A stretch of DNA of 63,357 nt, filler included, from 6 parts of 6 records of this genome joined end to end with filler, not necessarily neighbours in it, one strand, 5' to 3'; shown: positions 31 through 61,505, counted from the whole stretch's first letter. Numbers and translations are program-made. Notes: generated by a model from the sequence alone, not told the origin.

Positions 31-112
31 ATTACCTATCCAAGGTTTAAGACATTCCTTAACAAATGGTTAGAAATAATTTACTAGTTTTGGCACACTA
101 AAATTTAGAACA

Positions 113-817
113 ATGAAAAAAATTGTACTGATTCTGCTAGTTATGGCAGGATTTACAGCAAATGCACAGACAAAAAGTGATTTGCTTAAACATTATGAGG
201 CCTATTATGACCAAATGAGACAACAGGGGGATATAAATGGTGTAATTAGCGCCATAACCCACCTAAACATACTTTCCCCAAGCAAAGAGCGCAATGATAC
301 CTTGGCTTACATTTACACCACGGACAATCAACATTTACAGGCGCTAAACACAATCGGGATTGAAAAAAACGAATCTGACTCGGATTTGGCGGTCCAAGTA
401 AAAGCTATTTCCTTAAAGGCATTGAACCAACCAAAGAGGGCCTTGGAACAGTTTGAAATTCTTAATAAGAGAGGACCAAATCCGTATTTAGCATATGAAT
501 TGGCAGATTTAAAAATTCAGACCGGTGACAATGAAGGTGCAGCCGTCAATATTGAATATGGAATTGCCAATGCGAAAGACGATATGAAATATGCATTCTA
601 TGAAAGGCAACAGCCATACGAGGTTGCTTTAAAGGCTGCCTTTATCCATTTGAAGGCCCTGGTAGAATTCAATAAAGATCAAAACGACATAGATGGAGCT
701 CTGGCCACCATTGATGAAGCATTAAAAATAGATCCCAATTTTAATTTGGCCAGTCTAAGCAGACAAGCTTTACAGTCCAGAAAGGACAAACTTGAAAATA
801 AAGAAACCAAGGAATAG
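113..817 (+). CDS. Secreted tetratricopeptide-repeat-like protein
   Basis: Signal peptide MKKIVLILLVMAGFTANAQ; helical TPR-like segments (ALKIDPNF); Bacteroidota -7 promoter element TAGTTTTG at 85-92. Confidence 0.7.
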   Translation: MKKIVLILLVMAGFTANAQTKSDLLKHYEAYYDQMRQQGDINGVISAITHLNILSPSKERNDTLAYIYTTDNQHLQALNTIGIEKNESDSDLAVQVKAISLKALNQPKRALEQFEILNKRGPNPYLAYELADLKIQTGDNEGAAVNIEYGIANAKDDMKYAFYERQQPYEVALKAAFIHLKALVEFNKDQNDIDGALATIDEALKIDPNFNLASLSRQALQSRKDKLENKETKE

Positions 818-847
818 TCCAATAATTTTCTATCCCCATTTAGAAGC

Positions 848-877
848 AAAAAACCACTGTTGTACAGTGGTTTTTTT
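848..877. terminator. Bidirectional intrinsic terminator between convergent genes
   Basis: AAAAAACCACTGT-TGT-ACAGTGGTTTTTT. Confidence 0.8.
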
Positions 878-916
878 ATGCTTTAAAGATTATAAGCTCC
901 CCATTTTCACAGAGAT

Positions 917-1417
917 TTACTGTTTAATTAACTCTTCAATAATCCTGTCATCCTTTTCCTGTTTGATCAGGATTACCTCGGAGACATTTTTATTGGGAAT
1001 CACGATAGACAATACATAGTGTGCTATTTTCCAATCCCCGGACTCCTTTTTGAGCACCCCGGAGCCGCGACATAATTTCATCTGGGTATCCAACAATTCA
1101 TCAAACCAAGCATAATCCCCCTCATCATTGACGTATATTTGCCGTTCCACGGCTTTGAAGTTCCACGCCTTTCCCTTATCAAAATGAGGCTTTGCGTAGG
1201 CCTTAAATTCTTCGATCTGCCAATTCTCGGAAGCATCCGTACCAATAAACACGGCATCGGAAGTCATTAAATTAAAATAGGCATCAAAATCGGCACTTCC
1301 TGCCGCTCTATGCCAGCTATCCAAGATGTTCCCTATTTCTTTTTTATCCATTTGCACCTGAGACCTGAGCTGCAAGGACCAAAGGACTGCAAACACAAGC
1401 AGCAGGGCCCTACTCAC
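917..1417 (-). CDS. NTF2/SnoaL-like domain protein, secreted
   Basis: LDSWHRAA..ADFDAYF..FIGTD..E.W, AWFDELL, RGSGVL....WKIAHY pattern. Confidence 0.8.
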   Translation of the reverse strand: MSRALLLVFAVLWSLQLRSQVQMDKKEIGNILDSWHRAAGSADFDAYFNLMTSDAVFIGTDASENWQIEEFKAYAKPHFDKGKAWNFKAVERQIYVNDEGDYAWFDELLDTQMKLCRGSGVLKKESGDWKIAHYVLSIVIPNKNVSEVILIKQEKDDRIIEELIKQ

Positions 1418-1904
1418 TCAAAATTAGGGTAGTGTCCAATTGGCTATTGACAATAACATTGAACTGGTTCCTAAATGCATTATAAGCATCGATCATTTCT
1501 ATAGTGGAGGCTTTGGTACCCGACCTATACTCTAAATTTCCCTTTGTTTTAAGAATATAGGTCTTAAAGACCTTTTGCCTGCTCTTAATCTGGGGCTTAT
1601 CAAATGTTGCCGGATATGTAGATGCTTCCAGTGTTTTTTGTTTCTCGATCAAGTCTTCAATGACCAATTCCAAATCCTCCCTATTCGCCACCCTATACAA
1701 CGATTCAAAAGTAGTTTCCAAACCGTTGAATTCCTGCCATTCCTTTAGAATAGTCAGGGCCTGATCATTAATTTCATTGGGTTTGGGGAGTGAATCCACA
1801 CTGAAAAATTCTTCTGCCTTTTCTATAACGGCCTCTGTGCTTGCCTGCTGTTTACAAGAGCCCAACAATATGAAAACAATGAGGTAAAACAATATTCTTC
1901 CCAT
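1410..1904 (-). CDS. Hypothetical lipoprotein
   Basis: Likely start ATG 1904 (MGRILFYLIVFILLGSC, lipobox Cys), preceded by a -7-like TACCTTCG. Confidence 0.65.
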   Translation of the reverse strand: MGRILFYLIVFILLGSCKQQASTEAVIEKAEEFFSVDSLPKPNEINDQALTILKEWQEFNGLETTFESLYRVANREDLELVIEDLIEKQKTLEASTYPATFDKPQIKSRQKVFKTYILKTKGNLEYRSGTKASTIEMIDAYNAFRNQFNVIVNSQLDTTLILSE

Positions 1905-2004
1905 AGGGCGAAGGTACAAATTTTAATAAACGCCAGCTTTGGCAGCATTTAAATTTAACTAGGTTTTAATTCAAAAATCAGTCCAATCATTGAGTGATAT
2001 AGCC

Positions 2005-2045
2005 AAATTGGGAAGGCATGAACATTGGCCACACCTTCCCAATTT
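2005..2045. terminator. Hairpin downstream of rimK
   Basis: AAATTGGGAAGG...CCTTCCCAATTT 12-bp inverted repeat. Confidence 0.55.
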
Positions 2046-2071
2046 ATTTTATTTCCTCTTAAAACTAGCGG

Positions 2072-3448
2072 CTAGGAGTTAAATTTAATCTTAGTTTCTA
2101 TAGCCCTGATCATAATACTGGCAATATCCTTCCCTGTAGCATTTTCAATTCCCTCCAATCCCGGGGACGAATTTACTTCAAGCAACAAGGGCCCTTTGTT
2201 GGAACGGATGATGTCTACACCGGCAACTGCCAGGTTTAGGACTTTGGCCGCCTTTACCGCCAACTTCCTTTCCTCGGAAGTAATTTTTATAATTGATGCC
2301 TTGCCTCCTTGGTGCAGGTTAGCACGGAATTCCCCTTTTTCGGCTTGGCGCTGTATTGAGGCCACTACTTTTCCGTTGACCACAAAACAGCGGATATCCT
2401 GGCCGTTGGCTTCTTTTATGAACTCTTGTACCAAAATATTGGTCTGCACACTTTTAAAGGCGTTGATAACACTTTCAGCGGCCTTGTTTGTTTCTGCCAA
2501 AACTACGCCCTTACCTTGGGTACTTTCCAATAGTTTTATAATCAACGGAGCCCCGTTGACCATCCTGATAAGATCTTTGGTATCCATGGGAGATTTGGCA
2601 AAACCGGTAATAGGGATATGTATATCATTTTTGGAAAAAAGTTGGGATGCGAACAATTTATCCCTGGACTGGGTTATGGCTTCTGCCGAATTTAAACAAT
2701 ACACCCCAAGATTATCGAACTGCCTTATCAAGGCACAGCCGTAAAAGGTAACCGCCGGTTTTATCCTAGGAATAATGGCATCGAACTCATTTAATATGTT
2801 CCCTCCCCTATATCTGATCTCCGGTGAATTGGCATCCAGTTTCATATAGGCGTGCTCCACATTTAAAAAAACCATATCATGACCCAAGGCCTCACCGGCC
2901 TCCATTATTCGTTTGTTGCTGTACAACATTGGGTTACTGGCCAACAATGCAATTTTAAGCCCCGTTTTCTCCTTAAAATGAGAGGAATATCTCTGATTTA
3001 TTTCAGTTGCCGTGAACTCCCCCATATTAAAACTTATCGCGGGGTTTACCACAAAACGTTCATTTAGCGCCTCCCTGCCCAACAGCATACGGTATTCCAT
3101 AGTATCCCTGTTGGCCAAGGTGAGTTCAATTTCGAAGGTAAGGCTGCCTACCCTTACCGGGGTCCTTATCACATAACGCTCCTCTGATATCCCTGATGAA
3201 CTCTTAACCGTCCTTCTGTCTACCAAACGCGCCTTGCAGTCTATATTGATACCCCTATTGTCCTGTAAGGGGTTAACCTCGAACTTTACCCATTCGTGGG
3301 CCCCTTTGGTATACACTTTTATATTATTTGCCTGTATGGACGAGGTTTTTGCCCCGGAATCTACCCTGGCCTTTATAGCGGGAATCTCCAAATCCTCAAA
3401 TACACACCATTCCTCACTACCAATAATATCCAGGTCCTTATACTTCAT
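2072..3448 (-). CDS. rimK: RimK ATP-grasp glutamate ligase fused to an N-terminal retropepsin-like putative protease domain
   Basis: N-terminal [11 protein letters not shown] and MLLGR motifs; C-terminal RimK motifs [36 protein letters not shown]. Confidence 0.9.
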
Positions 3449-3569
3449 TTCTATGTCTAAATTTTCTTTTTAATTAATTGCAAAATAAAACACTTGACCC
3501 CTGGGAATCAAGAATTATTGATTATTAATTTATTAAATAACGGTTGGCTTTCGGAGATAATCCTGAAAA

Positions 3570-3986
3570 TCAGGACAAGAACATCTCTTTAGGCTTTTTG
3601 AAACATTTAAATTCTACCATGTGTCCATTTGGATCCTGAATAAAAAAGGACTTATGCTCCCCTATTTTGTCCTTTAAAAAAACGACCTCGGTGGTAAGTT
3701 CATATTCCGACTTTGTTAATTTGGCATGCAAATTATTCCAGGTACTTTCATCCACAATTACCCCAAAGTGAAAAGATGGAAGCACCGTATCTTCAAACTT
3801 ATAGGTCTTAAAGGTAAAATTAAAAATGCCGGCTTTGGTAAACGTAATCTGGTTTCCAAAGAGATTGATATCCAGCCATCGGGAAGAGTGCCTTCCCAAT
3901 TCGGCACCGATGACGTTTACGTAGAAATCTTCTGTTTTGCTTATGCTTAGGCAGGGCAGTGACATATGGAAGGGTGCATTTTTCAT
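3570..3986 (-). CDS. VOC/glyoxalase family protein
   Basis: FHMSLP, FYVNVIG, HFGVI, FFIQDPNGHMVEFK motifs. Confidence 0.8.
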   Translation of the reverse strand: MKNAPFHMSLPCLSISKTEDFYVNVIGAELGRHSSRWLDINLFGNQITFTKAGIFNFTFKTYKFEDTVLPSFHFGVIVDESTWNNLHAKLTKSEYELTTEVVFLKDKIGEHKSFFIQDPNGHMVEFKCFKKPKEMFLS

Positions 3987-4158
3987 CTATTTAAATTTAA
4001 TTTATAATAATTGAACCATCCCGACACCTAATCGGGTGCAATTCGCCATTAAACATCCACTCCCGCTAATTATTCGGTGCTTTAAGGTAGTATAAAGGCT
4101 TATTTCAAATGGCTTTATTATAATAATGATGCTTTAACTAAGGTAGTAAAAAGATCAA

Positions 4159-4947
4159 TTACAATTTACTCCACAATCTAAATACAAAAAGATCGAGAAC
4201 CTCTACCAAAATTAGGATAATAATGACCCACTCCAACCTACTGCTTTCCCTATGGTCCCAGATATCTTTGAACAACTCCAGGTTTTCCTTAATGATTCCC
4301 AATTGTTCGTGAATATTTCTATACCTTATCTTTAGGTCGAAGGTTTGTTTCAGTTCCAGGTTTAACCTATTCAGCTGCTCATTTTCCCAAGTACTTTCCG
4401 GCTCATCAAAAATATATAGGTTTTCTGAAATCTGATTTTTTATATTCAGGACCTTCCCTATAAACTTCTTGAGTTTGATTCCCGAAATGTTCAACTTTCC
4501 CTTTTTTTCCAAATATTGGGTGTGTTCATTGGTTTCTTCCAATAACTGTTGGGTAATTTCGGAATATTGGTCCAAGGCCACAGATTGGGAAGTATTCAGC
4601 ATTACCAATCTAATATACTCGGAATCAAAACTGGGCAGGATTACTTTATCGAAAGCCACCTTTTGGTGGCCTTCGATTATTTCTACTTGTATTGTTTCTG
4701 TAAATTGGGGAGCAATTTTCTCCTTGGTAATAGCGGAAAGGGCGTCTTGAACCTTTGCTTTTTCATCCTCGGAATGATTAAAAAAGGATACCAGACCATA
4801 TTGAAAGATATAGACGAATTTTTTTTCGCCATTTTTCAAATAGAGTTCATCACTGTCCGAAAACAATATTTTTAAAGGCAATTGGGATTTACATTGCCTA
4901 ATATTGATCGAAGATGCTATATGAACGGCAACAACCTCAAACATCAC
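4159..4947 (-). CDS. RMD1/YagE (DUF155) family protein
   Basis: YIFQYGLVSFFN, SQSVALDQY and C-terminal RLEWVIIILILVEV transmembrane segment. Confidence 0.8.
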   Translation of the reverse strand: MMFEVVAVHIASSINIRQCKSQLPLKILFSDSDELYLKNGEKKFVYIFQYGLVSFFNHSEDEKAKVQDALSAITKEKIAPQFTETIQVEIIEGHQKVAFDKVILPSFDSEYIRLVMLNTSQSVALDQYSEITQQLLEETNEHTQYLEKKGKLNISGIKLKKFIGKVLNIKNQISENLYIFDEPESTWENEQLNRLNLELKQTFDLKIRYRNIHEQLGIIKENLELFKDIWDHRESSRLEWVIIILILVEVLDLFVFRLWSKL

Positions 4948-4950
4948 GCG

Positions 4951-5265
4951 TTAATCATCGTCATCATCTCCCTCTACTCCTTCCAGATCCACATCTGGAA
5001 TGGCCTCTGGATCGTCATCGTCAAAATCCTCATAATCATCCTCATCGTAATTGGCCATAGTCTTTTCCAACTTGGCACTAATCTTGACAAGATATTTAGT
5101 ATCCTCGGTGGTCACCTCAACGGCCTCAATACGCTCTCCTTGCGCATTCTTGAAGGAGATGATATTAAGATCGTCGTACCCATCCGGATACTTCTCAACC
5201 AAAAGTTTCAAAACTTCGGGAGTAAGTTTTTTAAAGTCTACAATAACTCTTTTTAAATTGTCCAT
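4951..5265 (-). CDS. Small conserved hypothetical protein with an Asp/Glu-rich tail
   Basis: KRVIVDFKKLTPEVLKLLVEKYPDGY N-domain; acidic C-terminus; 3-nt gaps to both neighbours. Confidence 0.7.
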   Translation of the reverse strand: MDNLKRVIVDFKKLTPEVLKLLVEKYPDGYDDLNIISFKNAQGERIEAVEVTTEDTKYLVKISAKLEKTMANYDEDDYEDFDDDDPEAIPDVDLEGVEGDDDDD

Positions 5266-12075: not shown

Positions 12076-13947
12076 TTACACCAATCTTGAAAAACGTGCA
12101 TTTGAATAAGGAAAATCCACACCCATGGCAAAAGCCGTAAAAAGCCCACCGACCAATGCAGATACCAAGGTTTCCCAACCAACAGTCGGTGTTATGTACA
12201 CTACATCTACAGGTAGGATGGTCATAAACATGCCAACAAGAACGGATGCGATTGCTGTCCATTGATATAGTCTTAACCCTTTTACAATAGGTGTTTGCAC
12301 CTCTCCCCTATATGCCTCCTCCACAAAACGGCCTATCCCTGTCAATATTAAATACAGGCCAAAAATAAATGGCGAAGGAAAATCATTATTATGAAGTGAT
12401 AAAAGAATAAACCCAACCAAAAAAAGCCAAATCATGGCATACAAAGGCGTTGGGTGAAGCAGTTCGCCCTTCAAATCTGAAATACCACAAACGCGAGAAC
12501 GATAACGGTAATATTTAATTCCAATGTCCGGGTTGTCTACCTTTCCACCATGGCAACATCCATTTACCAAACAACGAAAGCGACCAATGGCTTGGACCCA
12601 TGGCATAAATACCGATATTACTCCAATAACCACCCATACATTATACCCCAAAGCCCATACGGCTATACTTGCAAAAAGAATCCCCACCAAGGCACCATAA
12701 TAACCATAGGGTCTTTTCAATTTCTCCGAGCCTTCTATTATTTGCGCCCAAAGTGCAGAAAATACAATTACTATAAAAGAAAACACCAAGATTGCCCAAG
12801 CATAGGCATCACCCACTAAAATCCCAGAAAGAAAAATCCCAAAAAAGGTACCAAAGCCTACATAGAAACCATAATTTATCACCCTTAGCTTTCCAAATAC
12901 CCATTCCTGCCATGAATTGGCTATTTTTTCAGCTCTTTTCCTTAAAAAGGTCCAAATTTTAAAATAATTACCAGCTATTAGAAATATTAGGGCAGAACAA
13001 AGTAAATGAAGCTCTGCAGAATTGCTGAAAGATAATTGTATACAACTGAATACAATTGCCAATAGCCCAAATATAATACCCTTGGTCTTTGATTGTTTGT
13101 AAATAATCTTAACTGAAAGCAACATCAAAAAGATGGGAATATAATAGAAAAAGCCATTTTGACCCGGAAGATATTGTGCACATACACTAGGAAATAACAG
13201 TGCTGTATAGGAAGAAATAAATATAGCAAGGATAGATACAATTACCCAGTTCCTTAACAAATCCTTCCTCTCAATAAAAAGAGGCACTGCGATTAGAAAA
13301 AACAAACTCAATAAGAGCAAATACTGATTTTCAGTATTTATGGGCAAATTCAACGGTTTTCCCCATGCAGCCTTGCTGTCTCCTACCAAAAAGGATATAA
13401 CATAATTAGACAAAAATAAAAATACCAATACCCATAATATGGATACTAAACGCGAACTTTTATCAGCCAATCCGGTTGTACCCTCAGCAATATCCAAAAT
13501 TGTGGACTTGACCTCATTTGGAAATCTTTTCTTCAAATCTATGGCTTCGTACCCCAAAACAAGGGCTATCATAGAGAAGATGGTAATAGGTGTTACCAGC
13601 CAGAGACCACTTGCCGACTTGGTCAAAATAAAATACCCAATTACTAAAAGGCCGAAACCCCAATAAATAGGATGTTTCAGGAAATGGTATGGCCCTTTGG
13701 TTACAAATTTTCTTGGAGGATAGGCGTTCATAGGCAATCCTTCCCCATATTTTTTTAAATAGAACATGGCCGTTACCATTAGCAATGCGCCAAATCCAAT
13801 AAACATCCAACCTGTAAAGATTGATTCAATTGCAGGTAAGTCTATCACGTCTTCTGTATATTTTGCCCAAAGAACTAACATTAGGGGGATAATGATGAGA
13901 AAGAGGACGGCATATAGTGTTTTGTTTATTCGATTCCTTGTATTCAT
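12076..13947 (-). CDS. Polytopic membrane fusion: PEMT/ICMT-like methyltransferase domain plus C-terminal Lgt-like domain
   Basis: N-terminal GEGLPMNAYPPRKFVTKGPYHFLKHPIYWG; C-terminal IGRFRCLVNGCCHG, HPTPLY, GIGRFVEEAYR. Confidence 0.8.
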   Translation of the reverse strand: MNTRNRINKTLYAVLFLIIIPLMLVLWAKYTEDVIDLPAIESIFTGWMFIGFGALLMVTAMFYLKKYGEGLPMNAYPPRKFVTKGPYHFLKHPIYWGFGLLVIGYFILTKSASGLWLVTPITIFSMIALVLGYEAIDLKKRFPNEVKSTILDIAEGTTGLADKSSRLVSILWVLVFLFLSNYVISFLVGDSKAAWGKPLNLPINTENQYLLLLSLFFLIAVPLFIERKDLLRNWVIVSILAIFISSYTALLFPSVCAQYLPGQNGFFYYIPIFLMLLSVKIIYKQSKTKGIIFGLLAIVFSCIQLSFSNSAELHLLCSALIFLIAGNYFKIWTFLRKRAEKIANSWQEWVFGKLRVINYGFYVGFGTFFGIFLSGILVGDAYAWAILVFSFIVIVFSALWAQIIEGSEKLKRPYGYYGALVGILFASIAVWALGYNVWVVIGVISVFMPWVQAIGRFRCLVNGCCHGGKVDNPDIGIKYYRYRSRVCGISDLKGELLHPTPLYAMIWLFLVGFILLSLHNNDFPSPFIFGLYLILTGIGRFVEEAYRGEVQTPIVKGLRLYQWTAIASVLVGMFMTILPVDVVYITPTVGWETLVSALVGGLFTAFAMGVDFPYSNARFSRLV

Positions 13948-14705
13948 TTCATTCGCATTTTATAGAAAAAAATAAGCATGGAAATAACTGAAAAGCCGAA
14001 ACCATAAACCAAACTGTTCACAGTGGCTACAGTTGCAGAAAAATCTGTTACCGCGGTAATAATGGCCGATTGGGAAGGGAAATAGGCCGGGAGGAATTTT
14101 ATGATTACTTGATTTTGTGCTTCAGCATAAAACAAAGGGTTCTGCAGCCAACCTGCATCTATATTTACAAGCAGTACGATCAACAAAATACCTTCCAACT
14201 CTGCCTTGACAAGACTTCCAATGACCAGGCCGTAACTTCCGTAGACAAAGCCAATTAGTACTAACCCAATAATAAAACTACCAAGGTGATCAATGGAATA
14301 AAATACACTTGTAAGCAGCCCTGTATAAATAGCTATTATTACAATCACCAAAAACAAGGCAAGCAAAATAGAAATTAATAATTCTATGGGATGATAGCCG
14401 CAAAGAATAAGCCTACGGTTAACATCATTGTTTTTTTGAACTAGGTTTAAGGCCAAAAATGCAACCAGAAAACCAGATGAGGCTACGGCGAAAAAGATGA
14501 AGGAAATAGCTTTTTCACTAATATTAACAAAAACCTCCTCACCTACTGAAGCCAATTGAAAAGGAAGTATTCTGTCCGAAGTCGTAATCTGTACCATTGT
14601 CAAGAAAAATGCGGGAATGAGCAAAAGCAAAATAATCACGATCTTTTGGCGAACAAGCATTCTCAAAATCATGGATAAACCTATTGTGATCTTATTCAGC
14701 GTCAT
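13944..14705 (-). CDS. ABC-2 type exporter permease
   Basis: About six hydrophobic segments; overlaps the ATPase gene by 4 nt. Confidence 0.8.
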   Translation of the reverse strand: MTLNKITIGLSMILRMLVRQKIVIILLLLIPAFFLTMVQITTSDRILPFQLASVGEEVFVNISEKAISFIFFAVASSGFLVAFLALNLVQKNNDVNRRLILCGYHPIELLISILLALFLVIVIIAIYTGLLTSVFYSIDHLGSFIIGLVLIGFVYGSYGLVIGSLVKAELEGILLIVLLVNIDAGWLQNPLFYAEAQNQVIIKFLPAYFPSQSAIITAVTDFSATVATVNSLVYGFGFSVISMLIFFYKMRMK

Positions 14706-15301
14706 ACCAATATCCCGTTTTCAAGTTGATAAATTCGATCAAGTCTTTCCTTTTCATTCAGCAAATGGGTAACAATTAGTATGGCACAACCCCTGTTCTT
14801 AAGTTCAGTGGTATAATTCCAAAACCGTTGATAGGTGTCCCAATCAAAACCATTATACGGCTCATCCAATATCAATAAGTTTGGCTCATGCAGAAGAGCT
14901 ATTGAGAGGTTAAGTTTTTGTTGGGTACCCCCACTCAAATTAATAATTTTTTCATATTGGTACTTTTTATAATTGAAGTATAGGAGCAGTTCTTCATACC
15001 GCACCTTAGATAGCCCACTGTTAACACCGTAGGCCACAGAAAAATAATCGAAATGTTCCTGCACCGTAAGATGTGGAAAAACAACTGCCCTTTGTGGGCA
15101 ATAACCTATACTGCCAATAATTTTAACACTTCCCCTATGCGCACTGCGAAGTCCAACAATGATCTCCATTAAAACCGACTTCCCGGAACCATTTTCTCCA
15201 ACAATACCCGTGATAGATCCCGCCTCCAATTGAAAGGAGATATCTTTGAGGACATTTTTTCTTCCGAAGGATTTCGCGATATGTTCAGCCTTTAAAATCA
15301 T
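14702..15301 (-). CDS. ABC transporter ATP-binding protein
   Basis: Walker A GENGSGKS, signature LSGG, Walker B LILDEP, H-loop VTH. Confidence 0.93.
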   Translation of the reverse strand: MILKAEHIAKSFGRKNVLKDISFQLEAGSITGIVGENGSGKSVLMEIIVGLRSAHRGSVKIIGSIGYCPQRAVVFPHLTVQEHFDYFSVAYGVNSGLSKVRYEELLLYFNYKKYQYEKIINLSGGTQQKLNLSIALLHEPNLLILDEPYNGFDWDTYQRFWNYTTELKNRGCAILIVTHLLNEKERLDRIYQLENGILV

Positions 15302-16113
15302 TGATCCTGTACGTTAAAATCAACCCACTCATGGATGGCCATGCCATTTATAACAGGATCCCCATTTTTTTGAAATTCACCTTTACTTAACCACTTGTGA
15401 TTTTTAGCCATCAAAAACTTGGAGGGCATCAACTTATTAAATCCAGGTAAGTATCTTAGAAGTTTATACACTACCTGATGTATTTTTTTTTCGGATTCAA
15501 TAACTACACCTCTATCGAGCTTTAGTGAAAAAGCCCTTTCATCTGATGAAAGGCAATTGTCTTCTATACTACAATTTGTTATTTTTTCGCCATTAAGCCA
15601 TATCCATTGCTGTTGTTTTTCCGCTCGTAATTCTATCCAAACAATGGTATTGCCCAGCGAATGGAATCTCCCCCAACGCAGATCGTTCATAGGGATATGC
15701 CATGGAGGGGCGGTTAGAATCAATTGTTCAACGTATCCGTTGCCTTTAACAACCTTATCCCCAATATTCAGCTTCACCTTAGAAGCAGGCTGAAAACAGT
15801 TCCAGTCCAGAAACCCATGATCAGCATCATATATCCGGGCTTGTAGAGGTTTAGCAACAGATTCCCACAGTCCAGAAACCTTAAATTTGTCATCGCGCCA
15901 ACTGATCAATTTTTCCTTTTTCTTAGGTATTATTACATTTCGAAAATGGGAAGACACCTTAACCCCATTCTCGGAATCATATTGTATCCAACTTGCATAA
16001 TGGGCCGAGAATCCATTCCAAGTTAATTTTGCGGCGTAAAAGATCATTGCTTCACCTTTGTCCCCTATAAAATCGAGAAACCATTTGTTCAGATGAAAAT
16101 TGGATCTTGCCAC
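15298..16113 (-). CDS. Trp-rich hypothetical protein, possibly CrtC/AttH/tocopherol-cyclase-like fold
   Basis: KWFLDF near the N-terminus and GNGYVE..PPW..LRWGRF loosely resemble that family; inside a coupled operon. Confidence 0.45.
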   Translation of the reverse strand: MARSNFHLNKWFLDFIGDKGEAMIFYAAKLTWNGFSAHYASWIQYDSENGVKVSSHFRNVIIPKKKEKLISWRDDKFKVSGLWESVAKPLQARIYDADHGFLDWNCFQPASKVKLNIGDKVVKGNGYVEQLILTAPPWHIPMNDLRWGRFHSLGNTIVWIELRAEKQQQWIWLNGEKITNCSIEDNCLSSDERAFSLKLDRGVVIESEKKIHQVVYKLLRYLPGFNKLMPSKFLMAKNHKWLSKGEFQKNGDPVINGMAIHEWVDFNVQDQ

Positions 16114-16119
16114 TTGCTT

Positions 16120-16983
16120 TTAATTGTTTTGATTGTCCGAAATAATTTGTTTAAAAACCTTCTTCGCGGGAATCTCATAAACCAAGGTAAATGCCCATTT
16201 TTGCAATAGTGAAAAATTCCCCTCAGGCAATCTCCTATGATGCTCTTCAAGAAGTTGCATCCCATTTTCTGCACGTTCAAGTATCCATTTTTTTATTTTT
16301 ACAGAAGCGGGATTATTCAGATCTTCCTTGGAAATTTGGAGCCGTATGCATTCCTCCTGGGAGATATTAACATAACCTGCGGCCAAATCCGCAGCTATAT
16401 CCTCTATGTCATATTGGTACCTACAGGCCATCCCAAGTGGTTCCAATAAGGTATATTTCTCCGGATCATCCTTAAAAACCTTTAAAGTTGCTTTTATAGT
16501 ACCCCTGATATCCAATAAGTGGAAATGGTGTATTAAATCCACTTTGGGAAAAATGGTCATTTTACCGCGTCGATTTGCATCGAAAAGTAATGAGTTAAGG
16601 ATATCGGCAGTTTCTTCCCCGAAATCTTCACCAAATTTTTCTGCCAGCTTAAAACAATGAACCATTAAATGGTCTACTTCGTCTTTAGGGTGAATCGGAT
16701 TTTTTGAGAATTCTATTTTTTCCAATAAGTAATCCTTTCCACTTAAATACCCTTTTGGCATAGGCGCGTCACCATCAACAATATCATCTAGAAATCGCAT
16801 TAAAACGTAATAACATTCCAAGAATTCACCTCTTATCGGGGCAAAAGCGGCGTATTTAAAGAAACGCAGATAACGCAAAAAAATCCGGTACTTCCAATCG
16901 CGTGTTGCCAACATATGCTTAAAGACCCGATTACGAATTGCTATCGGCTCCATCGCAACGTCAGATTGCACAATCATGCTCAC
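16120..16983 (-). CDS. Squalene/phytoene synthase-like class I isoprenoid synthase
   Basis: First Asp motif YYVLMRFLDDIVDGD; second motif LGMACRYQYDIEDIAADLAAGYVNI; the start may be ATG 16977. Confidence 0.75.
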   Translation of the reverse strand: MSMIVQSDVAMEPIAIRNRVFKHMLATRDWKYRIFLRYLRFFKYAAFAPIRGEFLECYYVLMRFLDDIVDGDAPMPKGYLSGKDYLLEKIEFSKNPIHPKDEVDHLMVHCFKLAEKFGEDFGEETADILNSLLFDANRRGKMTIFPKVDLIHHFHLLDIRGTIKATLKVFKDDPEKYTLLEPLGMACRYQYDIEDIAADLAAGYVNISQEECIRLQISKEDLNNPASVKIKKWILERAENGMQLLEEHHRRLPEGNFSLLQKWAFTLVYEIPAKKVFKQIISDNQNN

Positions 16984-17427: not shown

Positions 17428-17527
17428 NNNNNNNNNNNNNNNNNNNNNNNNNNNNNNNNNNNNNNNNNNNNTTAATTAATTAANNNNNNNNNNNNNNNNN
17501 NNNNNNNNNNNNNNNNNNNNNNNNNNN
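17428..17527. other. Artificial contig spacer
   Basis: N-run + TTAATTAATTAA (stops in all six frames) + N-run, 100 nt. Confidence 0.98.
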
Positions 17528-17774: not shown

Positions 17775-19082
17775 ATGAAACATATTGCAATAATTGGAAA
17801 TGGAATTGCAGGAACTACTGCGGCAAGACATATCCGAAAACTAAGTAATTATAAAATAACCATTATTTCTGCGGAATCTAAATACTTTTTTTCAAGAACT
17901 GCATTGATGTATGTGTATATGGGGCATATGAAATTTGAACATACGCAACCTTATGAGAATTGGTTTTGGGAGAAAAATAACATAGCGCTTAAAGAAGGGT
18001 TTGTTACAGAAGTGGATACCGATAAAAATACACTTGTTTTTAAAGATGGCTCCACCCTAAGTTATGACAATTTAATTATTGCTTCAGGCTCTAAGCCTAA
18101 TAAATTTGGATGGCCTGGTCAAGATTTAAAGGGAGTTCAAGGTCTTTACTCCAAACAAGATTTAGAACTTTTAGAAGTTAATGCTCCTAATAATAAAGCT
18201 TGTAAAAAGGCTATTATTGTTGGTGGCGGACTTATAGGTATTGAACTTGCAGAAATGCTTCGTACCCGAGAAATTCCTGTTACATTTTTAGTGCGCGATA
18301 AAGATTTCTGGGGAAGTGTACTTCCTTCTGGCGATGCTAATTTGATAAGCAAACATATTAAAACTCACCATATCGATTTACGATTAGAAACAGAACTTAA
18401 AGAAATTATCGGAGACGAAAATGGTCGTGTAAAATCGGTAATTACTTCAAAGGGAGAGGAAATTGAATGCAATTTGGTAGGACTTACTGCTGGTGTTTCG
18501 CCTGCTGTAGACTTTTTAAAAAATAGTTCTATTGAAACTGGAAAAGGCGTAAAAGTTAATAAGTATTTAGAAACTAATATTCCAAACGTTTATGCCATTG
18601 GCGATTGTGCACAACAACTTGAACCCACAGGCTTACGAAATCCTGTTGAAGCTGTTTGGTACACTGGCCGTATGATGGGAGAAGTAGTAGCACAAACTAT
18701 CTGCGGAAATAAAACAGCATACAACCCTGGAGTTTGGTTTAACTCGGCTAAATTTTTTGATATTGAATACCAAACCTATGGTTGGGTGTGGGCAAAACCT
18801 AAAGATTATGAAGCTCATTTTTCATGGGAAGTTCCCAATGGAGAAAAGCGCATTACCTTGGCGTATCATAAAAACACCAATGCTATTCTTGGAGTAAACA
18901 CTTTCGGAATTCGTTTAAATCATAAAACTTTTGATTCTTGGATTTCAGAAGAAAAAAATATTGATTACGTAATAGAACATTTAGAGAAGGCTAATTTTGA
19001 TCCAGAATTTTACCATTCTCATTTTTCAGCCATCAAAAAAGCATTCAAAGAACAGTTAAAAACTGATAAAAATTGCATATGA
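17775..19082 (+). CDS. NAD(P)/FAD-dependent pyridine nucleotide-disulfide oxidoreductase family protein
   Basis: IIGNGIAG, IVGGGLIGIELA, TNIPNVYAIGD motifs. Confidence 0.9.
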   Translation: MKHIAIIGNGIAGTTAARHIRKLSNYKITIISAESKYFFSRTALMYVYMGHMKFEHTQPYENWFWEKNNIALKEGFVTEVDTDKNTLVFKDGSTLSYDNLIIASGSKPNKFGWPGQDLKGVQGLYSKQDLELLEVNAPNNKACKKAIIVGGGLIGIELAEMLRTREIPVTFLVRDKDFWGSVLPSGDANLISKHIKTHHIDLRLETELKEIIGDENGRVKSVITSKGEEIECNLVGLTAGVSPAVDFLKNSSIETGKGVKVNKYLETNIPNVYAIGDCAQQLEPTGLRNPVEAVWYTGRMMGEVVAQTICGNKTAYNPGVWFNSAKFFDIEYQTYGWVWAKPKDYEAHFSWEVPNGEKRITLAYHKNTNAILGVNTFGIRLNHKTFDSWISEEKNIDYVIEHLEKANFDPEFYHSHFSAIKKAFKEQLKTDKNCI

Positions 19083-20677
19083 ATACCACAGTACAAAGAA
19101 ACATGTCTTTAGCGGGAGAGCCTCCAGTAGCGCTTAATTTTCTTCAAAAACTAGCTGTTATTGTAGGAATGTTTGGTCTAGGAGTTTTACTGCTAGCTAT
19201 TTTTAATGTAAACTTTCCTAATAAAACCTTGTGGTTAACACTATCTCTTAGCTCCTTAATATTTGGAGTGCTACTATTTTCCTACGGAGCCTACAATAAC
19301 AAACACGCTGGAATTAAAAACGATGCTGTGTGGTTTAAATCCATTTCTTCAAGGGGCTTTTTAGCTTGGCTTTTAGGGATTGCCCTTACTGGCTTCTACA
19401 TTGTTTTATACTTTTACCCACAATATCTAGGATTACGAACAGAAGGAAGTAATGTAGGACTTATAGGATTATTTGATCCCTTAAGTACACTTTTAAGTGG
19501 TAATCCTGCCAGTCAATGGTTTGTATATGGAACGCTTTATACCGTTGCCATTCTAGCTTTCGGAATTAAATTTTTGTGGAAATATCGCCATAATCGCTAT
19601 GAAGTATTACGAACAATTAGTGTGATGTTTTTTCAATTATCCTTTGCGTTTATCATTCCAGAATTAATGGCACGTTTAAATAATTCTGAAGCTTATAATA
19701 TTCCGTATTACGATTTAAAAAATATTTGGCCACTAAGCTATTACAATTTTGACCAATATAGAGTTGATGGTTTTATAAGCTCCGGAGATATAGGTCTTGC
19801 TTTGCTTATATTTGGAATTGTTTCTATTTTAATTATTACTCCTATTTTAACTTATTTCTACGGAAAACGTTGGTATTGTTCTTGGGTTTGTGGTTGTGGC
19901 GGACTAGCTGAAACTTCTGGTGATTCTTTTAGACACTTGTCCGATAAAAGTTTAAAAGCATGGAAAATAGAACGTTGGTTGGTGCACAGTGTTTTGGTGT
20001 TTTCTGTATTGATGACCGTAGCTGTAGTGCATAGCTACCTCAATTATGACGCTAGTAAATACTGGCTTAATAAAGATGCTTTTTTAATAAGCGTAGCTGT
20101 TTTTCTAGGGGCATTATTTGCAGTAATCTGGTACTTTAAAAGAGACGAATTACAAAAAGATGCTCAATATGGAGCAATTGGATACTTGGCTATTATTCTC
20201 GGACTCATTGCTATTCATTATTTCAGCGGGAGTAATATCTTTATTTTCAATCCTGAAACTCTTCGTAAAACCTATTCATTTTTTATAGGTTCTATTTTTT
20301 CGGGAGTAATAGGCACTGGTTTTTATCCCATTTTAGGAAATCGAGTTTGGTGTCGTTTTGGTTGTCCTATGGCAGCAATTCTGGGACTGCAACAACGTTT
20401 ATTCTCAAAATTTAGAATTACAACCAATGGTGGGCAATGTATTTCCTGCGGAAACTGCTCTACTTATTGTGAAATGGGTATTGATGTTCGTGCATATGCA
20501 CAAAAAGGAGAGAACATTATTAGAGCGTCATGTGTTGGCTGCGGAATATGCTCTGCCGTTTGTCCACGAGGGGTCCTTAAATTAGAAAATGAAAGTCCCA
20601 AAGGACGTATCAACAGTGATGCGGTTTTACTAGGAAATGATGTGAATTTACTCGATTTAATTAAACAAAATAAATAA
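19079..20677 (+). CDS. Membrane 4Fe-4S binding protein (NapH/RdxA-like)
   Basis: WYCSWVCGCG and WCRFGCP motifs, two CxxCxxCxxxC clusters, many TM helices; ATGA overlap with the upstream gene. Confidence 0.85.
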   Translation: MNTTVQRNMSLAGEPPVALNFLQKLAVIVGMFGLGVLLLAIFNVNFPNKTLWLTLSLSSLIFGVLLFSYGAYNNKHAGIKNDAVWFKSISSRGFLAWLLGIALTGFYIVLYFYPQYLGLRTEGSNVGLIGLFDPLSTLLSGNPASQWFVYGTLYTVAILAFGIKFLWKYRHNRYEVLRTISVMFFQLSFAFIIPELMARLNNSEAYNIPYYDLKNIWPLSYYNFDQYRVDGFISSGDIGLALLIFGIVSILIITPILTYFYGKRWYCSWVCGCGGLAETSGDSFRHLSDKSLKAWKIERWLVHSVLVFSVLMTVAVVHSYLNYDASKYWLNKDAFLISVAVFLGALFAVIWYFKRDELQKDAQYGAIGYLAIILGLIAIHYFSGSNIFIFNPETLRKTYSFFIGSIFSGVIGTGFYPILGNRVWCRFGCPMAAILGLQQRLFSKFRITTNGGQCISCGNCSTYCEMGIDVRAYAQKGENIIRASCVGCGICSAVCPRGVLKLENESPKGRINSDAVLLGNDVNLLDLIKQNK

Positions 20678-20742
20678 TACTATAATTTCTGTGCGACTCA
20701 ACATTAGATAGTATTTTTGCAACCTAATTTAGGCGATTGTAA

Positions 20743-21432
20743 ATGAAGCTCATTAAAGTTATTATTCCTGCTTATAACGAAGAAAAATCTATTGCTCATG
20801 TTATAAATGAAATTCCTGAAGTTGTTGAGGAAGTTATTGTTGTAAATAATAACTCTACCGACACTACAGAATTTGTTGCTAAAAAAGCAGGAGCTACTGT
20901 CCTTACTGAAAATAAAAAAGGATATGGGTATGCTTGTTTGAAAGGCATGGATTACATTGCAAAACAAAAAAAACAACCTGATATTATTGTTTTTCTTGAT
21001 GGCGATTATTCCGATTACCCAGAAGAACTTACCAAAATTGTTGCCCCCATTATTGAAAATGATATTGATTTTGTTATTGGCGCCCGTGTTGAAGAATTCC
21101 GCGCAAAAAACTCAATGACTCCACAACAAATTTTTGGAAATTGGCTAGCTACAACCCTTATGAGGATATTTTTTAATGCTAAGTTTACCGATTTAGGTCC
21201 GTTTAGAGCTATTAAATACAATAAGCTAATTGCTTTAAACATGGAAGATAAAACCTATGGTTGGACAGTAGAAATGCAATTAAAAGCAATAAAAAAGAAC
21301 TACTCGTATGTAGAAATTCCAGTACGTTACAAAAACCGAATCGGAGTTTCTAAAGTATCTGGCACTGTAAAAGGAAGCGTTATGGCAGGTATCAAAATAT
21401 TAGGTTGGATTTTTAAATATAGTTTTAAATGA
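20743..21432 (+). CDS. GT2 glycosyltransferase (DPM1-like polyprenol-phosphate sugar synthase)
   Basis: IIPAYNEE, NNSTD, FLDGDYSD motifs; -7 element TATTTTTG at 20712-20719. Confidence 0.88.
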   Translation: MKLIKVIIPAYNEEKSIAHVINEIPEVVEEVIVVNNNSTDTTEFVAKKAGATVLTENKKGYGYACLKGMDYIAKQKKQPDIIVFLDGDYSDYPEELTKIVAPIIENDIDFVIGARVEEFRAKNSMTPQQIFGNWLATTLMRIFFNAKFTDLGPFRAIKYNKLIALNMEDKTYGWTVEMQLKAIKKNYSYVEIPVRYKNRIGVSKVSGTVKGSVMAGIKILGWIFKYSFK

Positions 21433-22916
21433 TTTTAGAAATTGTTTCCTATACTATTTTAGTCATCTACGTTACTTCTTTGCTGCTTATTCTTTTTTAT
21501 AGTTTAACACAATTGAATTTATTGATAAACTATTTAACCTATAAAAAAGCCCCGGAAAACGAACCGAAATTTAATTTAACACAACCCGAAGAAGTTCCAA
21601 AAGTTACCATTCAACTTCCAATATACAATGAAGAATATGTAGTAGATAGATTACTTAAAAACATTATAAAACTAAAATATCCTTCTGATAAATTAGAAAT
21701 TCAGGTGCTAGATGATTCTACAGATGAATCTATTACAAAAACTTCAGAAATAATAAATAAATTTCAGCAAGAAGGAGTTGATATAAAACATATCACTAGA
21801 AAAAATCGTGTTGGATTTAAAGCTGGGGCTTTGAAAGAAGGTTTAGAGGTAGCTTCGGGAGAATTCATAGCTATTTTTGATGCCGATTTTCTTCCAGCTC
21901 CTCATTGGCTTCAAAAAACTGTCCCCTATTTTAAAGATCCTGAAATTGGAGTGGTACAAACCCGCTGGGGACATCTTAATCGAAATTATTCTTTGCTTAC
22001 CAAAATTCAAGCTTTTGCGTTAGATATGCATTTTACTATTGAGCAAGTTGGAAGAAGTGCTAAAGGTCACTTTATCAATTTTAATGGAACAGCTGGTATT
22101 TGGAGAAAAGCATGTATTCTAGACGCAGGGAATTGGGAAGGAGATACACTTACCGAAGATTTAGACCTGAGCTACCGAGCGCAAATAAAACACTGGAAGT
22201 TTAAATATTTAGAAGATGTAGAAACCCCCGCCGAACTTCCTGTTATTATTAGTGCGGCACGTACACAACAATTTAGATGGAATAAAGGAGGTGCTGAGAA
22301 TTTCAGAAAAACAGTTCGTAATTTATTAGCTTCCAAAAACATTTCTAACAAAACAAAGTTCCACGGATTCATACACTTACTCAATAGTTCTATGTTTTTG
22401 TGTGCATTTCTCATTTCAGTTTTAAGTGTTCCTATTCTCTTTATAAAACAACAAGATTTTATTCCAAATTGGGTTTTCAACCTTACTGGAATTTTTATTT
22501 TAAGCACCTTAATTCTTTATGTTTGTTATTGGTTTACTTATAAAAATATCCAAGGAAAGAGTTGGAAAAACATCCTTAGCTACACCAAAACATTCCTTAC
22601 TTTTTTTACTGTTATTTTAGGTTTTACGCTTCATAACAGTTTTGCAGTTATAGAAGGCCACCGAGGAAAACGAAGTGAATTTGTACGTACTCCTAAATTT
22701 AATATCAAAAATATATCAGATTCATGGAGGGGAAATAAATATATTTCTAAATCAATTTCTAGAAATATTATTTTAGAGGCCCTGCTAATTCTCTACTTTG
22801 CTTTTGGGATATTTAGTGCCTTTAAATTGAATGATTTTAGCCTATTTCCTTTTCACTTAATGCTGGTTATTGGTTTTGGTTTTGTATTTTTCCATTCAAT
22901 TAGGTCAAGAATATAA
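21429..22916 (+). CDS. Processive GT2 glycosyltransferase (cellulose-synthase-like, CslA/CslC-like)
   Basis: QLPIYNE, DDSTD, KAGAL, FDAD, TEDLD, QQFRW, FVRTPK. Confidence 0.9.
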   Translation: MILEIVSYTILVIYVTSLLLILFYSLTQLNLLINYLTYKKAPENEPKFNLTQPEEVPKVTIQLPIYNEEYVVDRLLKNIIKLKYPSDKLEIQVLDDSTDESITKTSEIINKFQQEGVDIKHITRKNRVGFKAGALKEGLEVASGEFIAIFDADFLPAPHWLQKTVPYFKDPEIGVVQTRWGHLNRNYSLLTKIQAFALDMHFTIEQVGRSAKGHFINFNGTAGIWRKACILDAGNWEGDTLTEDLDLSYRAQIKHWKFKYLEDVETPAELPVIISAARTQQFRWNKGGAENFRKTVRNLLASKNISNKTKFHGFIHLLNSSMFLCAFLISVLSVPILFIKQQDFIPNWVFNLTGIFILSTLILYVCYWFTYKNIQGKSWKNILSYTKTFLTFFTVILGFTLHNSFAVIEGHRGKRSEFVRTPKFNIKNISDSWRGNKYISKSISRNIILEALLILYFAFGIFSAFKLNDFSLFPFHLMLVIGFGFVFFHSIRSRI

Positions 22917-24272
22917 ATGTTAGATTATTGGAAAGCACATAAATTTCCGTTGTTATTTGTACTTGCATCCCTTCTATTTTATGCAAGCTTTGCGTACGAT
23001 TTACAACGTGCAGACACTACAAAACTTTTAGGCTTATATATAGGCCTTTTTTTCTTTTTCTATAAAATAATTCAATTTGAGAAAAATAACTTTAGGTTTC
23101 TCTTGCTATTTGGAATTGCCTCTCGATTTGTATTTTTTGCAGCAACGCCCAATTTGTCACAAGACTTTTATCGGTTTATTTGGGATGGTAAATTACTTCT
23201 AGATGGAATAAATCCCTTTCAATATACCGTTGAGCAATTACTAGCTTCCGATTTTTTTTCTGCGGAAAATTATAAAGGCTTACAAGAAGGTATGGGAAAC
23301 CTCAACGCATCTCATTACAGCAATTACCCTCCTATTAATCAATTGTTTTTTTATTTAAGTGCACTGCTTGGTGGAAAAACAATTTTAGGAAATATTATCG
23401 TTTTACGAAGTTTCATCATTTTATCCGACATTGGGATTTTATATTTTGGGCGTAAGATTTTACAATTATTACAGCTCCCAAAACATCAAATATTTTGGTA
23501 TTTTTTAAATCCGTTTATAATTATAGAACTTACCGGAAATCTTCATTTTGAAGGCATTATGTTATTCTTCTTTGTAGTTTCCTTATACTTCCTTCTTCAG
23601 CAAAAATGGATCATAGCCGCACTATTTTTATCTATATCTATTTCAACTAAGTTAGTGCCTCTGCTCTTCTTACCACTTTTTTTACGTTGGTTTTTAAAAG
23701 ATTTTCAGCAAATAAAAGGAAATGCATTTCAGCTCATCGGGTTTTATTCAATCCCTATTTTAGGCTTTATTGCTTCATTTCTTCCCTTTCTTTCCTCAGA
23801 ATTAATAACTAATTATGCGGAAACAATTGGACTCTGGTTTCAAAAATTTGAGTTCAATGCAAGTATCTATTATATCGTTCGAGAAATAGGATTTTACAGA
23901 AAAGGTTATAATATTATCGAAACAGCAGGAACACGAATGGCCATTGGAGTATTTATTTTTATATGGCTTTTAGGATTCTTAAGAAAAAATAATCAGCCAA
24001 AAACATTGTTTATTTCCATGCTTTTGGCTGTTAGTTTTTACCTTTTTATGAGTACTACAATACACCCTTGGTATATTGCTACGCCTCTATTATTGGGTGT
24101 TTTTACTAGCTATAAATATCCAATTATATGGTCTGCGGCTACTGTGTTAAGCTACCATGCCTACGCTCATCCAATTTTTCAAGAAAATTTATGGATTGTA
24201 ACGCTTGAATACTTAATAATTTATAGCTGTTTTATATACGAAGTGTTTTTTAACAAACGCCTAATCAAGTAA
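22917..24272 (+). CDS. GT-C fold membrane glycosyltransferase (mannosyltransferase-like)
   Basis: LSQDFYRFIWDG, NYPP, LNP, HFEG, HPWY motifs; polytopic. Confidence 0.8.
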   Translation: MLDYWKAHKFPLLFVLASLLFYASFAYDLQRADTTKLLGLYIGLFFFFYKIIQFEKNNFRFLLLFGIASRFVFFAATPNLSQDFYRFIWDGKLLLDGINPFQYTVEQLLASDFFSAENYKGLQEGMGNLNASHYSNYPPINQLFFYLSALLGGKTILGNIIVLRSFIILSDIGILYFGRKILQLLQLPKHQIFWYFLNPFIIIELTGNLHFEGIMLFFFVVSLYFLLQQKWIIAALFLSISISTKLVPLLFLPLFLRWFLKDFQQIKGNAFQLIGFYSIPILGFIASFLPFLSSELITNYAETIGLWFQKFEFNASIYYIVREIGFYRKGYNIIETAGTRMAIGVFIFIWLLGFLRKNNQPKTLFISMLLAVSFYLFMSTTIHPWYIATPLLLGVFTSYKYPIIWSAATVLSYHAYAHPIFQENLWIVTLEYLIIYSCFIYEVFFNKRLIK

Positions 24273-25342: not shown

Positions 25343-25442
25343 NNNNNNNNNNNNNNNNNNNNNNNNNNNNNNNNNNNNNNNNNNNNTTAATTAATTAANN
25401 NNNNNNNNNNNNNNNNNNNNNNNNNNNNNNNNNNNNNNNNNN
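25343..25442. other. Artificial contig spacer
   Basis: Same N/TTAATTAATTAA/N linker. Confidence 0.98.
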
Positions 25443-39658: not shown

Positions 39659-39758
39659 NNNNNNNNNNNNNNNNNNNNNNNNNNNNNNNNNNNNNNNNNN
39701 NNTTAATTAATTAANNNNNNNNNNNNNNNNNNNNNNNNNNNNNNNNNNNNNNNNNNNN
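39659..39758. other. Artificial contig spacer
   Basis: Same linker. Confidence 0.98.
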
Positions 39759-61497: not shown

Positions 61498-61505
61498 TGG
61501 ACCGC

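Follow-up and report, generated by a model that had tools for sequence, protein, structure and literature searches.

Which product calls for an enzyme of the squalene synthase fold, an exporter and a membrane protein with an Lgt domain to be encoded side by side? This question is raised by five genes at positions 12,076 to 16,983 of a 63,357-nucleotide stretch of assembled DNA (the window), which an original prediction, made from the sequence alone, took for a self-contained pathway that builds, tailors and exports an isoprenoid-derived lipid. All five genes lie on the minus strand and, as had been described, form a co-oriented array with one 6-nt gap and then three 4-nt overlaps in the open reading frame (ORF) listing. 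The first gene (16,120..16,983; 287 amino acids) encodes SYN, a distinct subfamily of the SQS/PSY fold. The second (15,298..16,113; 271 amino acids) encodes an AttH/CrtC-type double beta-barrel, a probable hydratase-like acid-catalysis enzyme without a signal peptide (the barrel). Two genes for an ATP-binding cassette (ABC) exporter follow, and the last gene (12,076..13,947; 623 amino acids) encodes a three-domain membrane protein with a PEMT/ICMT, a decayed PAP2 and an Lgt-like domain (the fusion). These genes form a real, conserved cassette that most likely builds and exports a membrane lipid. The core of this cassette is smaller than the array, and SYN accompanies only fusions that have lost the PAP2 catalytic residues.

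Conservation of the cassette and its two-gene core

The five genes co-occur in many genomes. They were all present, in the same order, in 19 of the 21 loci fetched with SYN, and because these loci keep the order at protein identities of 40-98%, the arrangement is beyond chance. One of the two exceptions ends inside SYN at a contig end, and in the other the ATPase is missing and the permease incomplete. The 21 loci came from Flavobacteriaceae, Algoriphagus, Prolixibacteraceae and other Bacteroidales. The closest named locus, Arenibacter palladensis L001, is 96-98% identical across all five proteins, and the ratio of nonsynonymous to synonymous differences (pN/pS) relative to it was 0.14-0.55 for the five genes, calculated from few differences.

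The view of the five genes as a self-contained unit did not survive comparison with more distant loci, since only the barrel and the fusion are conserved and most distant loci lack an isoprenoid synthase. In 401 genomes of the phylum the barrel gave 11 strong matches and two more weak ones, which are CrtC-like genes (one was checked). The barrel adjoined the fusion in all 11 strong loci; one of these carried all five genes, one carried SYN, barrel and fusion, and nine carried the pair alone. Among the 150 distant barrel relatives listed, barrel and fusion form a single polypeptide in P0446 (854 amino acids) and P0479 (906 amino acids). Both have a four-domain barrel-PEMT-PAP2-Lgt layout, with PAP2 intact in P0479 and largely deleted in P0446. 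Across 95 fusion-bearing loci (80 groups at 90% identity, window included), the genes that recurred beside the fusion were those for the barrel, the ABC pair and SYN (43 loci). A sulfotransferase gene lies directly downstream of the fusion in 22 of the 95 loci. Radical S-adenosylmethionine (SAM)/SPASM genes adjoin 14 loci and genes of another radical SAM type 3; adenylylsulfate kinase genes are near 7 loci, and pyridoxal phosphate (PLP) decarboxylase genes near 4. The ABC ATPase is missing from many core loci, and the ABC-2 permease also accompanies cores with an intact PAP2 domain (L087, L096 and L100). We conclude that SYN, the ABC exporter, the sulfotransferase and the radical SAM enzyme are add-ons to a two-gene core.

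A sulfotransferase gene behind the fusion points to a product with a free hydroxyl or amino group, and the longer Bacteroidales version of the cassette likely leads to a sulfated product, as judged from its gene content. At L013, L014, L020, L063, L064, L068, L112 and L154 the sulfotransferase gene downstream of the fusion often has genes for adenylylsulfate kinase and for a divergent radical SAM/SPASM enzyme as companions. The radical SAM gene was considered as a replacement for SYN and ruled out; it also adjoins 7 SYN-bearing loci. A LysA-like PLP decarboxylase, which scores below the lysA cut-off, joined the cassette in three lineages (L003, positions 4061-5254; L037, L076 and L099), and in L003 its gene is inserted between SYN and the barrel.

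The cassette is rare: one of the 25 genomes in L001's genus carried the barrel gene, the other 24 giving no match. It is scattered in marine and sediment bacteria and appears to be an accessory, horizontally moving module. Since canonical lgt and crtB-type genes were present elsewhere in all five genomes tested, the Lgt-like and synthase-fold genes of the cassette are extra copies. The barrel family comprises 1032 clusters at 50% identity, and none of 10 scanned received a Pfam name for the barrel. Clusters of barrel look-alikes were commonest in Gemmatimonadota, Planctomycetota, Acidobacteriota and Myxococcota (few members carry taxa), and Acidobacteria were named a second time among barrel relatives. 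Synteny of the cassette outside Bacteroidota is likely.

Folds and motifs of SYN, the barrel and the fusion

The assignment of SYN as squalene/phytoene-synthase-like agrees with its predicted structure. The AlphaFold2 model (pLDDT 88.5) has the all-alpha SQS/PSY fold, and the top four fold matches (Z 17.8-20.2, root-mean-square deviation 3.2-3.7, about 250 aligned residues) were HpnC (4hd1; Z 20.2, deviation 3.6, 250 aligned), a CrtM-like protein (8is6; Z 19.5), the carbazole prenyltransferase CqsB4 (Z 18.7) and CrtM (Z 17.8). YisP followed with Z 14.0, and Foldseek placed SYN in the same fold with E 2e-4. At the sequence level SYN matched neither the SQS_PSY Pfam model nor any NCBIfam model at E≤0.1; as a positive control, genes of the same phylum exceeded the HpnC and HpnD NCBIfam cut-offs. 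A search against the sequences of solved structures gave nothing significant (best E 0.97 with the single sequence and 0.12 with a profile), and the weak profile matches of the family were ordinary CrtB/HpnD-type genes. SYN stands apart from ordinary CrtB, HpnC and HpnD: it forms its own clade on a branch of length 3.5 (support 1.0), with 15-19% identity to 14 references of these types. The GTG start listed for SYN is probably two codons early; the closest aligned relative begins at the ATG of residue 3, so that the probable start is the ATG at 16,977. In the ESM Atlas, a SYN look-alike cluster (score 0.95) has Candidatus Woesearchaeota as its commonest phylum.

As had been noticed, SYN carries two Asp-rich motifs, R63-D70 and R188-D195, of which the second is divergent. 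Residues Y59, R63, D66, D70, D135, D195 and D199 are invariant in 125 of 125 SYN relatives, as are H153 and D158 on the pocket-lining helix, and D67 is present in 124. SYN shares with HpnC, CrtM and CrtB (PF00494) the fold, the first Asp-rich motif including the Tyr and Arg that precede it, and the aspartates of the second motif. It differs from them in that the Gln of the second motif is Arg (R188), the Asn is Tyr or Phe (position 191) and the Arg is Glu (E194), and in that a later Arg-x-Tyr is Tyr/Phe-x-Asn and a pocket Tyr is replaced. It also lacks their Pfam match and their crt or hpn neighbours, and carriers keep normal crtB-type genes elsewhere. We take the substituted positions to have functional roles in CrtM. 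Section 8 of a review on the reactions of such enzymes does not deal with these residues (PMC7839719). With several canonical positions replaced in all 125 relatives, head-to-head condensation by SYN is doubtful. SYN should still ionise a prenyl diphosphate, and in its polar pocket water or a polar acceptor would be better accommodated than another prenyl chain. CqsB4/LvqB4 and YisP, which resemble SYN in fold (Z 18.7 and 14.0), provide a precedent for a non-prenyl acceptor or water (entry titles; PMC10148934), and by analogy SYN may act like a phosphatase or prenyltransferase. They differ from SYN in sequence (8-11% identity) and share no gene context with it.

The second gene had been listed as coding for an unknown protein, and the fold that can be assigned to it by model, the AttH/CrtC hydratase double barrel, had been overlooked. 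The AlphaFold2 model (pLDDT 91.2) gave six matches with Z 19.2-22.3, namely CghA, Fsa2, Phm7, AttH NE1406, 25-phosphosteroid lyase and kievitone hydratase, and the next match had Z 8.6. The double-barrel fold is thus common to the barrel and CrtC, kievitone hydratase, AttH, the archaeal Hgs and the Diels-Alderases CghA and Fsa2. Within the AttH family, members hydrate isoprene double bonds, including those of archaeal membrane lipids (10.1101/2025.10.20.683597), and CrtC requires a His, a Trp, a Tyr and an Asp (PMC4717167). The barrel aligned to a CrtC-like protein with E 2.4e-6, and the corresponding positions, mapped via the CrtC-like protein of L045 and not via a characterised enzyme, are Leu102, Trp104, Tyr127 and Glu129. 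The barrel would accordingly keep the Trp, the Tyr and the acid of the CrtC set, which were found in 131, 130 and 130 of 131 diverse barrel relatives, respectively. The complete His-x-Trp and Tyr-x-Asp pattern of CrtC is not found: the His is missing and the Asp is Glu. The barrel also differs from the CrtC/AttH group in its shorter length (271 amino acids), its lack of a Pfam match, and its tie to the PEMT-PAP2-Lgt protein instead of crt genes. Pfam on 31 barrel relatives gave weak and inconsistent matches (DUF2625 in 9 of 31, best E 9e-4), which were not used. Because there is no signal-peptide pattern (a hydrophobic N-terminus was present in 1 of 270 relatives), the barrel should be cytoplasmic or membrane-peripheral. 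From its model, it is a probable acid-catalysis, hydratase-like enzyme.

CrtC-like barrel genes of another kind lie at L045 (6820-7896) and L046 (6385-7479), beside a family-2 glycosyltransferase and an acyltransferase gene; their only Pfam label is a Diels-Alderase N-terminal domain. By their gene content, these loci are probably concerned with carotenoid glycoside-ester tailoring.

The last gene had been described as a methyltransferase-Lgt fusion. Both of these domains were found by Pfam; a third domain between them, PAP2, had been missed together with its decay. The PEMT/ICMT-type methyltransferase domain (13,558..13,821; residues 43-130) matched PF04191 with 36 bits (cut-off 25), and PEMT was matched in all 13 aligned fusion members. 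Its H92, P93, Y95 and E134 are nearly invariant. The domain thus keeps His-Pro-x-Tyr and a Glu; a C-terminal element, which we take to be typical of ICMT, is only partly recognisable. Putatively, the domain carries out SAM-dependent methyl transfer.

The Lgt-like diacylglyceryl-transferase domain (12,079..12,930; residues about 340-623) is of a paralogue type. It belongs to PF01790 with 73.9 bits (cut-off 24.9) and falls far below the equivalog cut-offs (TIGR00544, 39.3 versus 118.9; PRK00052, 57.2 versus 334). It differs from the housekeeping Lgt also in being a second copy, fused behind PEMT and PAP2, and gave nothing significant against the sequences of solved structures. The equivalents of Arg143, Gly154, Arg239, Glu243 and Arg246 are kept, as in Lgt and MSMEG_5408-type proteins. 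R456, R540, E544 and R547 are retained, R456 and R540 in every row covering their positions, and the retained arginines are essential according to the structure paper on Escherichia coli Lgt (PMC4728403). As in the MSMEG_5408 type, the domain has Tyr at the His103 site and Cys at the Asn146 site, and the Tyr26 site is His in 92 of 96 fusions; in the window strain and one other it is Tyr. This Tyr26/His103/Asn146 pattern is reported for distant Lgts and for the MSMEG_5408 paralogue (PMC13251419; 10.1101/2025.01.07.631728). The idea that Tyr at the His103 site precludes Lgt activity was dropped, for this residue is present in the canonical Lgt of L132 and has been described in the literature. 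Since the arginines are kept and the substitution pattern is known in Lgts, the domain is probably a working transferase.

PAP2 decay, SYN occurrence and the surrounding DNA

The middle domain of the fusion (12,958..13,470; residues about 160-330) was assigned by hhalign to intact relatives. PAP2_3 matched 7 of the 13 members in the alignment, all of other types than the window's, and did not match the window protein. Aligned to intact PAP2, the middle domain gave a probability of 93.7 and E 1.9e-7 over 166 columns (control against the permease, 0.26%), and from this alignment it is PAP2 by descent. In the window both catalytic His and the Asp, the residues that we take to carry out PAP2 catalysis, are gone and 17 residues are deleted, leaving a segment of 62 versus 79 residues. 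The catalytic set was present in 27 of the 95 loci, and it was absent from the window and from all 43 SYN-bearing loci. In SYN loci the middle domain has a median identity of 39%, versus 67% and 74.5% for the flanking domains; in PAP2-intact loci it drifts no faster than its flanks (47% versus 49% and 58%).

The relation between SYN and PAP2 was scored in 75 loci chosen by the fusion or the barrel and not by SYN, 25 of which were too short upstream to score; loci were grouped by the fusion tree and by PAP2 motif states. Of the 29 loci in the decayed-PAP2 clade, 23 had SYN as a neighbour, compared with none of 19 PAP2-intact loci and neither of 2 with point lesions. Whole genomes that had been found without SYN gave a similar picture. 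A strong SYN match was present in none of 11 genomes with an intact PAP2 (G162, G182, G234, G250, G290, G306, G312, G330, G557, G591 and G682), and SYN was present in all 3 with a decayed one (G061, G092 and G590). Genome G313 has a split, damaged PAP2 and no SYN, and G648 was too fragmented to score. Bacteroidales genomes that were fetched after the hypothesis had been formed agree with the mutual exclusion of SYN and an intact PAP2. In a tree of 82 fusions, from which the middle domain was excluded and 14 partial rows were left out, the decayed-PAP2 type forms one clade (support 0.996), in which SYN is found on deep branches and six SYN-less loci are nested among SYN-bearing ones.

The accessory exporter genes encode an ABC transporter ATPase (14,702..15,301; 199 amino acids; PF00005, E 3e-27) and an ABC-2 type permease (13,944..14,705; 253 amino acids; PF12698, E 8e-7), both on the minus strand. 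The ABC2_membrane_3 score of the permease, 28.9 bits, is below the Pfam cut-off of 31.6. Downstream of the cassette lie moaE and moaC, both in the window and in L001; genome G001 matched this region at moaE only (68%). Upstream, an N-linker that marks a contig join (17,428..17,527) begins 445 bp from the SYN gene and cuts off the context. The lack of crt, hpn and shc neighbours that had been noted was borne out by the downstream genes, and on the upstream side was judged in L001, where no carotenoid or hopanoid gene was recognised by eye in 10 ORFs of at least 100 amino acids within 8 kb. In L001, look-alikes of a virulence-associated-E-type ATPase, a primase-like protein and a relaxase were seen by eye at 60-3741, 4-8 kb upstream of the cassette; from their sequences, these ORFs may belong to a mobilisable element that carried the cassette. 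A plasmid search gave no match, and PADLOC (2023 library, E≤0.001) assigned no family to four window proteins and one intact fusion. A promoter/terminator scan returned 20 promoter-like sites versus 10.7 ± 6.5, with nothing assignable, and 17 of the 22 sequencing runs listed hold at least half of the sequence words (one RNA run only 0.06).

The window consists of six contigs joined by N-linkers at 17,428-17,527, 25,343-25,442, 39,659-39,758, 56,012-56,111 and 60,221-60,320, and there is no true adjacency across them; an ORF listed at 60,265-61,377 begins within a linker. The next contig carries genes for an FAD oxidoreductase, a 4Fe-4S membrane protein, two family-2 glycosyltransferases and a GT87 enzyme in one run (17,775-24,272), which is unrelated to the cassette. 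The last two contigs (56,112-63,357) have GC contents of 0.26 and 0.61, versus 0.33-0.42, with genes for CtaG/Cox11 and aminopeptidase N, and are probably contamination of the assembly by other organisms.

A proposed lipid route and its alternatives

Each reaction proposed here is deduced from the gene order, folds, motif states and co-occurrence described above. All four enzyme domains have folds in which the characterised proteins work on lipids or prenyl groups, which supports a role in lipid metabolism. We consider it reasonably probable that the cassette is a lipid-tailoring module with an isoprenoid part, so that the product would be isoprenoid-derived. In this route, SYN would bind a prenyl diphosphate via Mg2+ and release diphosphate, and the cation would pass to water or a polar acceptor instead of a second prenyl chain. 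The barrel would add water to an isoprene unit's double bond, giving a tertiary alcohol, with Glu129 as the acid. The PEMT domain would methylate the lipid with SAM, or an accessory sulfotransferase would sulfate it in the lineages that have one. The ABC-2 exporter would then shift the intermediate to the outer leaflet, where the Lgt-like domain would add diacylglycerol from phosphatidylglycerol at the outer face. In the ancestral two-gene core, the PAP2 domain, on the side of the membrane that we assume for it, would have taken off the phosphate group. Once SYN did the dephosphorylation in the cytoplasm, PAP2 could have decayed to a membrane scaffold. The sidedness of Lgt is described (PMC4728403), and YisP is a farnesyl diphosphate phosphatase (PMC10148934). 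That SYN stands in for PAP2 is a tentative proposal, plausible but somewhat short of probable, and the exact step order and product given here have only a small chance of being right. The closest known arrangement is the purple-bacterial crtB-crtC-crtF group, which likewise combines a synthase-fold enzyme, a hydratase and a methyltransferase in one cluster, CrtF being the methyltransferase of methoxy-carotenoid formation. It differs in that the cassette has no desaturase, its methyltransferase is of the membrane PEMT/ICMT type, and the Lgt-like and PAP2 domains have no counterpart. In line with the original prediction, no described pathway with this gene set came to light: no paper on the set or on a PEMT-PAP2-Lgt fusion was found (most subscription journals lie outside the coverage), nor was a characterised cluster.

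Several observations weigh against the proposed route. The exclusion of SYN and PAP2 is one ancestral event plus later losses; because the decayed type is a single clade, the counts are not independent and could reflect hitch-hiking. Six loci of that clade (L070, L078, L079, L081, L083 and L084) have no SYN in 5.7-7 kb upstream, and a damaged PAP2 with no SYN seen also occurs in L041 (genome G313, which has no SYN), L105, L108 and P0446. A prenyl substrate for the PAP2-intact core is only assumed, since no isoprenoid gene was found near such loci. The barrel lacks the His of CrtC, and its top fold matches, spread over about 3 Z units, include Diels-Alderases no less than hydratases. Finally, the same Lgt substitutions occur in working, protein-lipidating Lgts (PMC13251419).

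Two alternatives turn on SYN. It could be a genuine synthase of the head-to-head type. Its hydrocarbon product, resembling squalene or phytoene, would then be hydrated by the barrel and methylated and lipidated by the fusion, and PAP2 would have decayed either incidentally or because the product bears no phosphate. The best fold matches (HpnC, CrtM-like and CrtM), the two conserved Asp-rich metal sites and the weak profile matches to ordinary CrtB/HpnD-type genes would agree with this. We consider it unlikely, given the replaced Asn, Arg and Gln of the second motif and the later Arg-x-Tyr, the invariant H153 and D158 in the pocket helix, the branch of 3.5 to all references, a prenyltransferase, CqsB4, as close in fold as CrtM, and a core that works without SYN. 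At the other extreme, the product could be a non-isoprenoid glycerolipid: PAP2 and Lgt would exchange head groups, PEMT would carry out N-methylation, and SYN would be repurposed or serve as a non-catalytic partner. In favour of this, glycerophospholipids are substrates of both PAP2_3 and Lgt, isoprenoid genes are missing from the widespread core, and a PLP decarboxylase adjoins 4 of the 95 loci. The retention of all metal-binding aspartates in SYN and the tie of the barrel fold to isoprene chemistry in characterised hydratases make this very unlikely.

The cassette could also serve protein or peptide lipidation. A cysteine would receive diacylglycerol from the Lgt-like domain, the ICMT-like domain would add a methyl group and SYN a prenyl group, and a radical SAM/SPASM enzyme would mature a peptide for export by the ABC system. 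Both Lgt and ICMT work on lipids linked to cysteine, the two substitutions, Tyr at the His103 site and Cys at the Asn146 site, are found in real Lgts, and radical SAM/SPASM genes adjoin 14 of the 95 loci. Residual Lgt activity is suggested for MSMEG_5408, of the Y26H/N146C type (PMC13251419; 10.1101/2025.01.07.631728). Other observations argue against this: among 393 intergenic ORFs from 79 loci (ATG starts, 20-99 amino acids), none was common to more than 2 of the 80 locus groups, so that no conserved precursor of a ribosomally synthesized peptide or lipopeptide was found nearby. Lipobox-like starts occurred in 2 of 270 relatives of the barrel and in 0 of 120 relatives of SYN, a normal Lgt was present in 5 of 5 genomes, and a small molecule would suit the barrel, PAP2 and sulfotransferase better. 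A lipidation target may be encoded away from the cassette; on balance we rate this explanation as quite unlikely. An equally improbable explanation is a detoxification or catabolic cassette directed at an external hydrophobic compound (a terpenoid, steroid or antimicrobial), which would be exported once it has been hydrated, methylated, sulfated or lipidated. The very patchy occurrence, in 1 of 25 genomes of L001's genus and as 11 strong matches in 401 phylum genomes, is consistent with such a role, as are the mobilisation-like ORFs seen by eye upstream in L001, the barrel fold of kievitone hydratase and 25-phosphosteroid lyase, and the interchangeable tailoring genes. A diphosphate-ionising enzyme points instead to an internal prenyl donor, and no regulator or uptake gene recurred among the neighbour clusters.

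Taken at its widest, the lipid-tailoring reading would make the barrel and the PEMT-PAP2-Lgt protein a widespread, undescribed route to a new class of ether lipids. An Lgt fold would lipidate a small isoprenoid alcohol instead of a cysteine, the SYN fold would have displaced PAP2 in Bacteroidota, and plug-in sulfation, radical SAM and decarboxylation enzymes would create a product family. In this full form the proposal is rather doubtful. The cassette nevertheless offers a small gene set with which to find a bacterial lipid (two genes at minimum, five in the window strain), in a named carrier, A. palladensis L001. It could test whether the Lgt fold lipidates non-proteins, and what role Lgt paralogues of the Y26H/N146C type have, and it could reveal new chemistry on the squalene-synthase and AttH folds. 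The exchange of PAP2 for SYN, if true, would clearly exemplify how, within a fusion protein, one fold takes the place of another.

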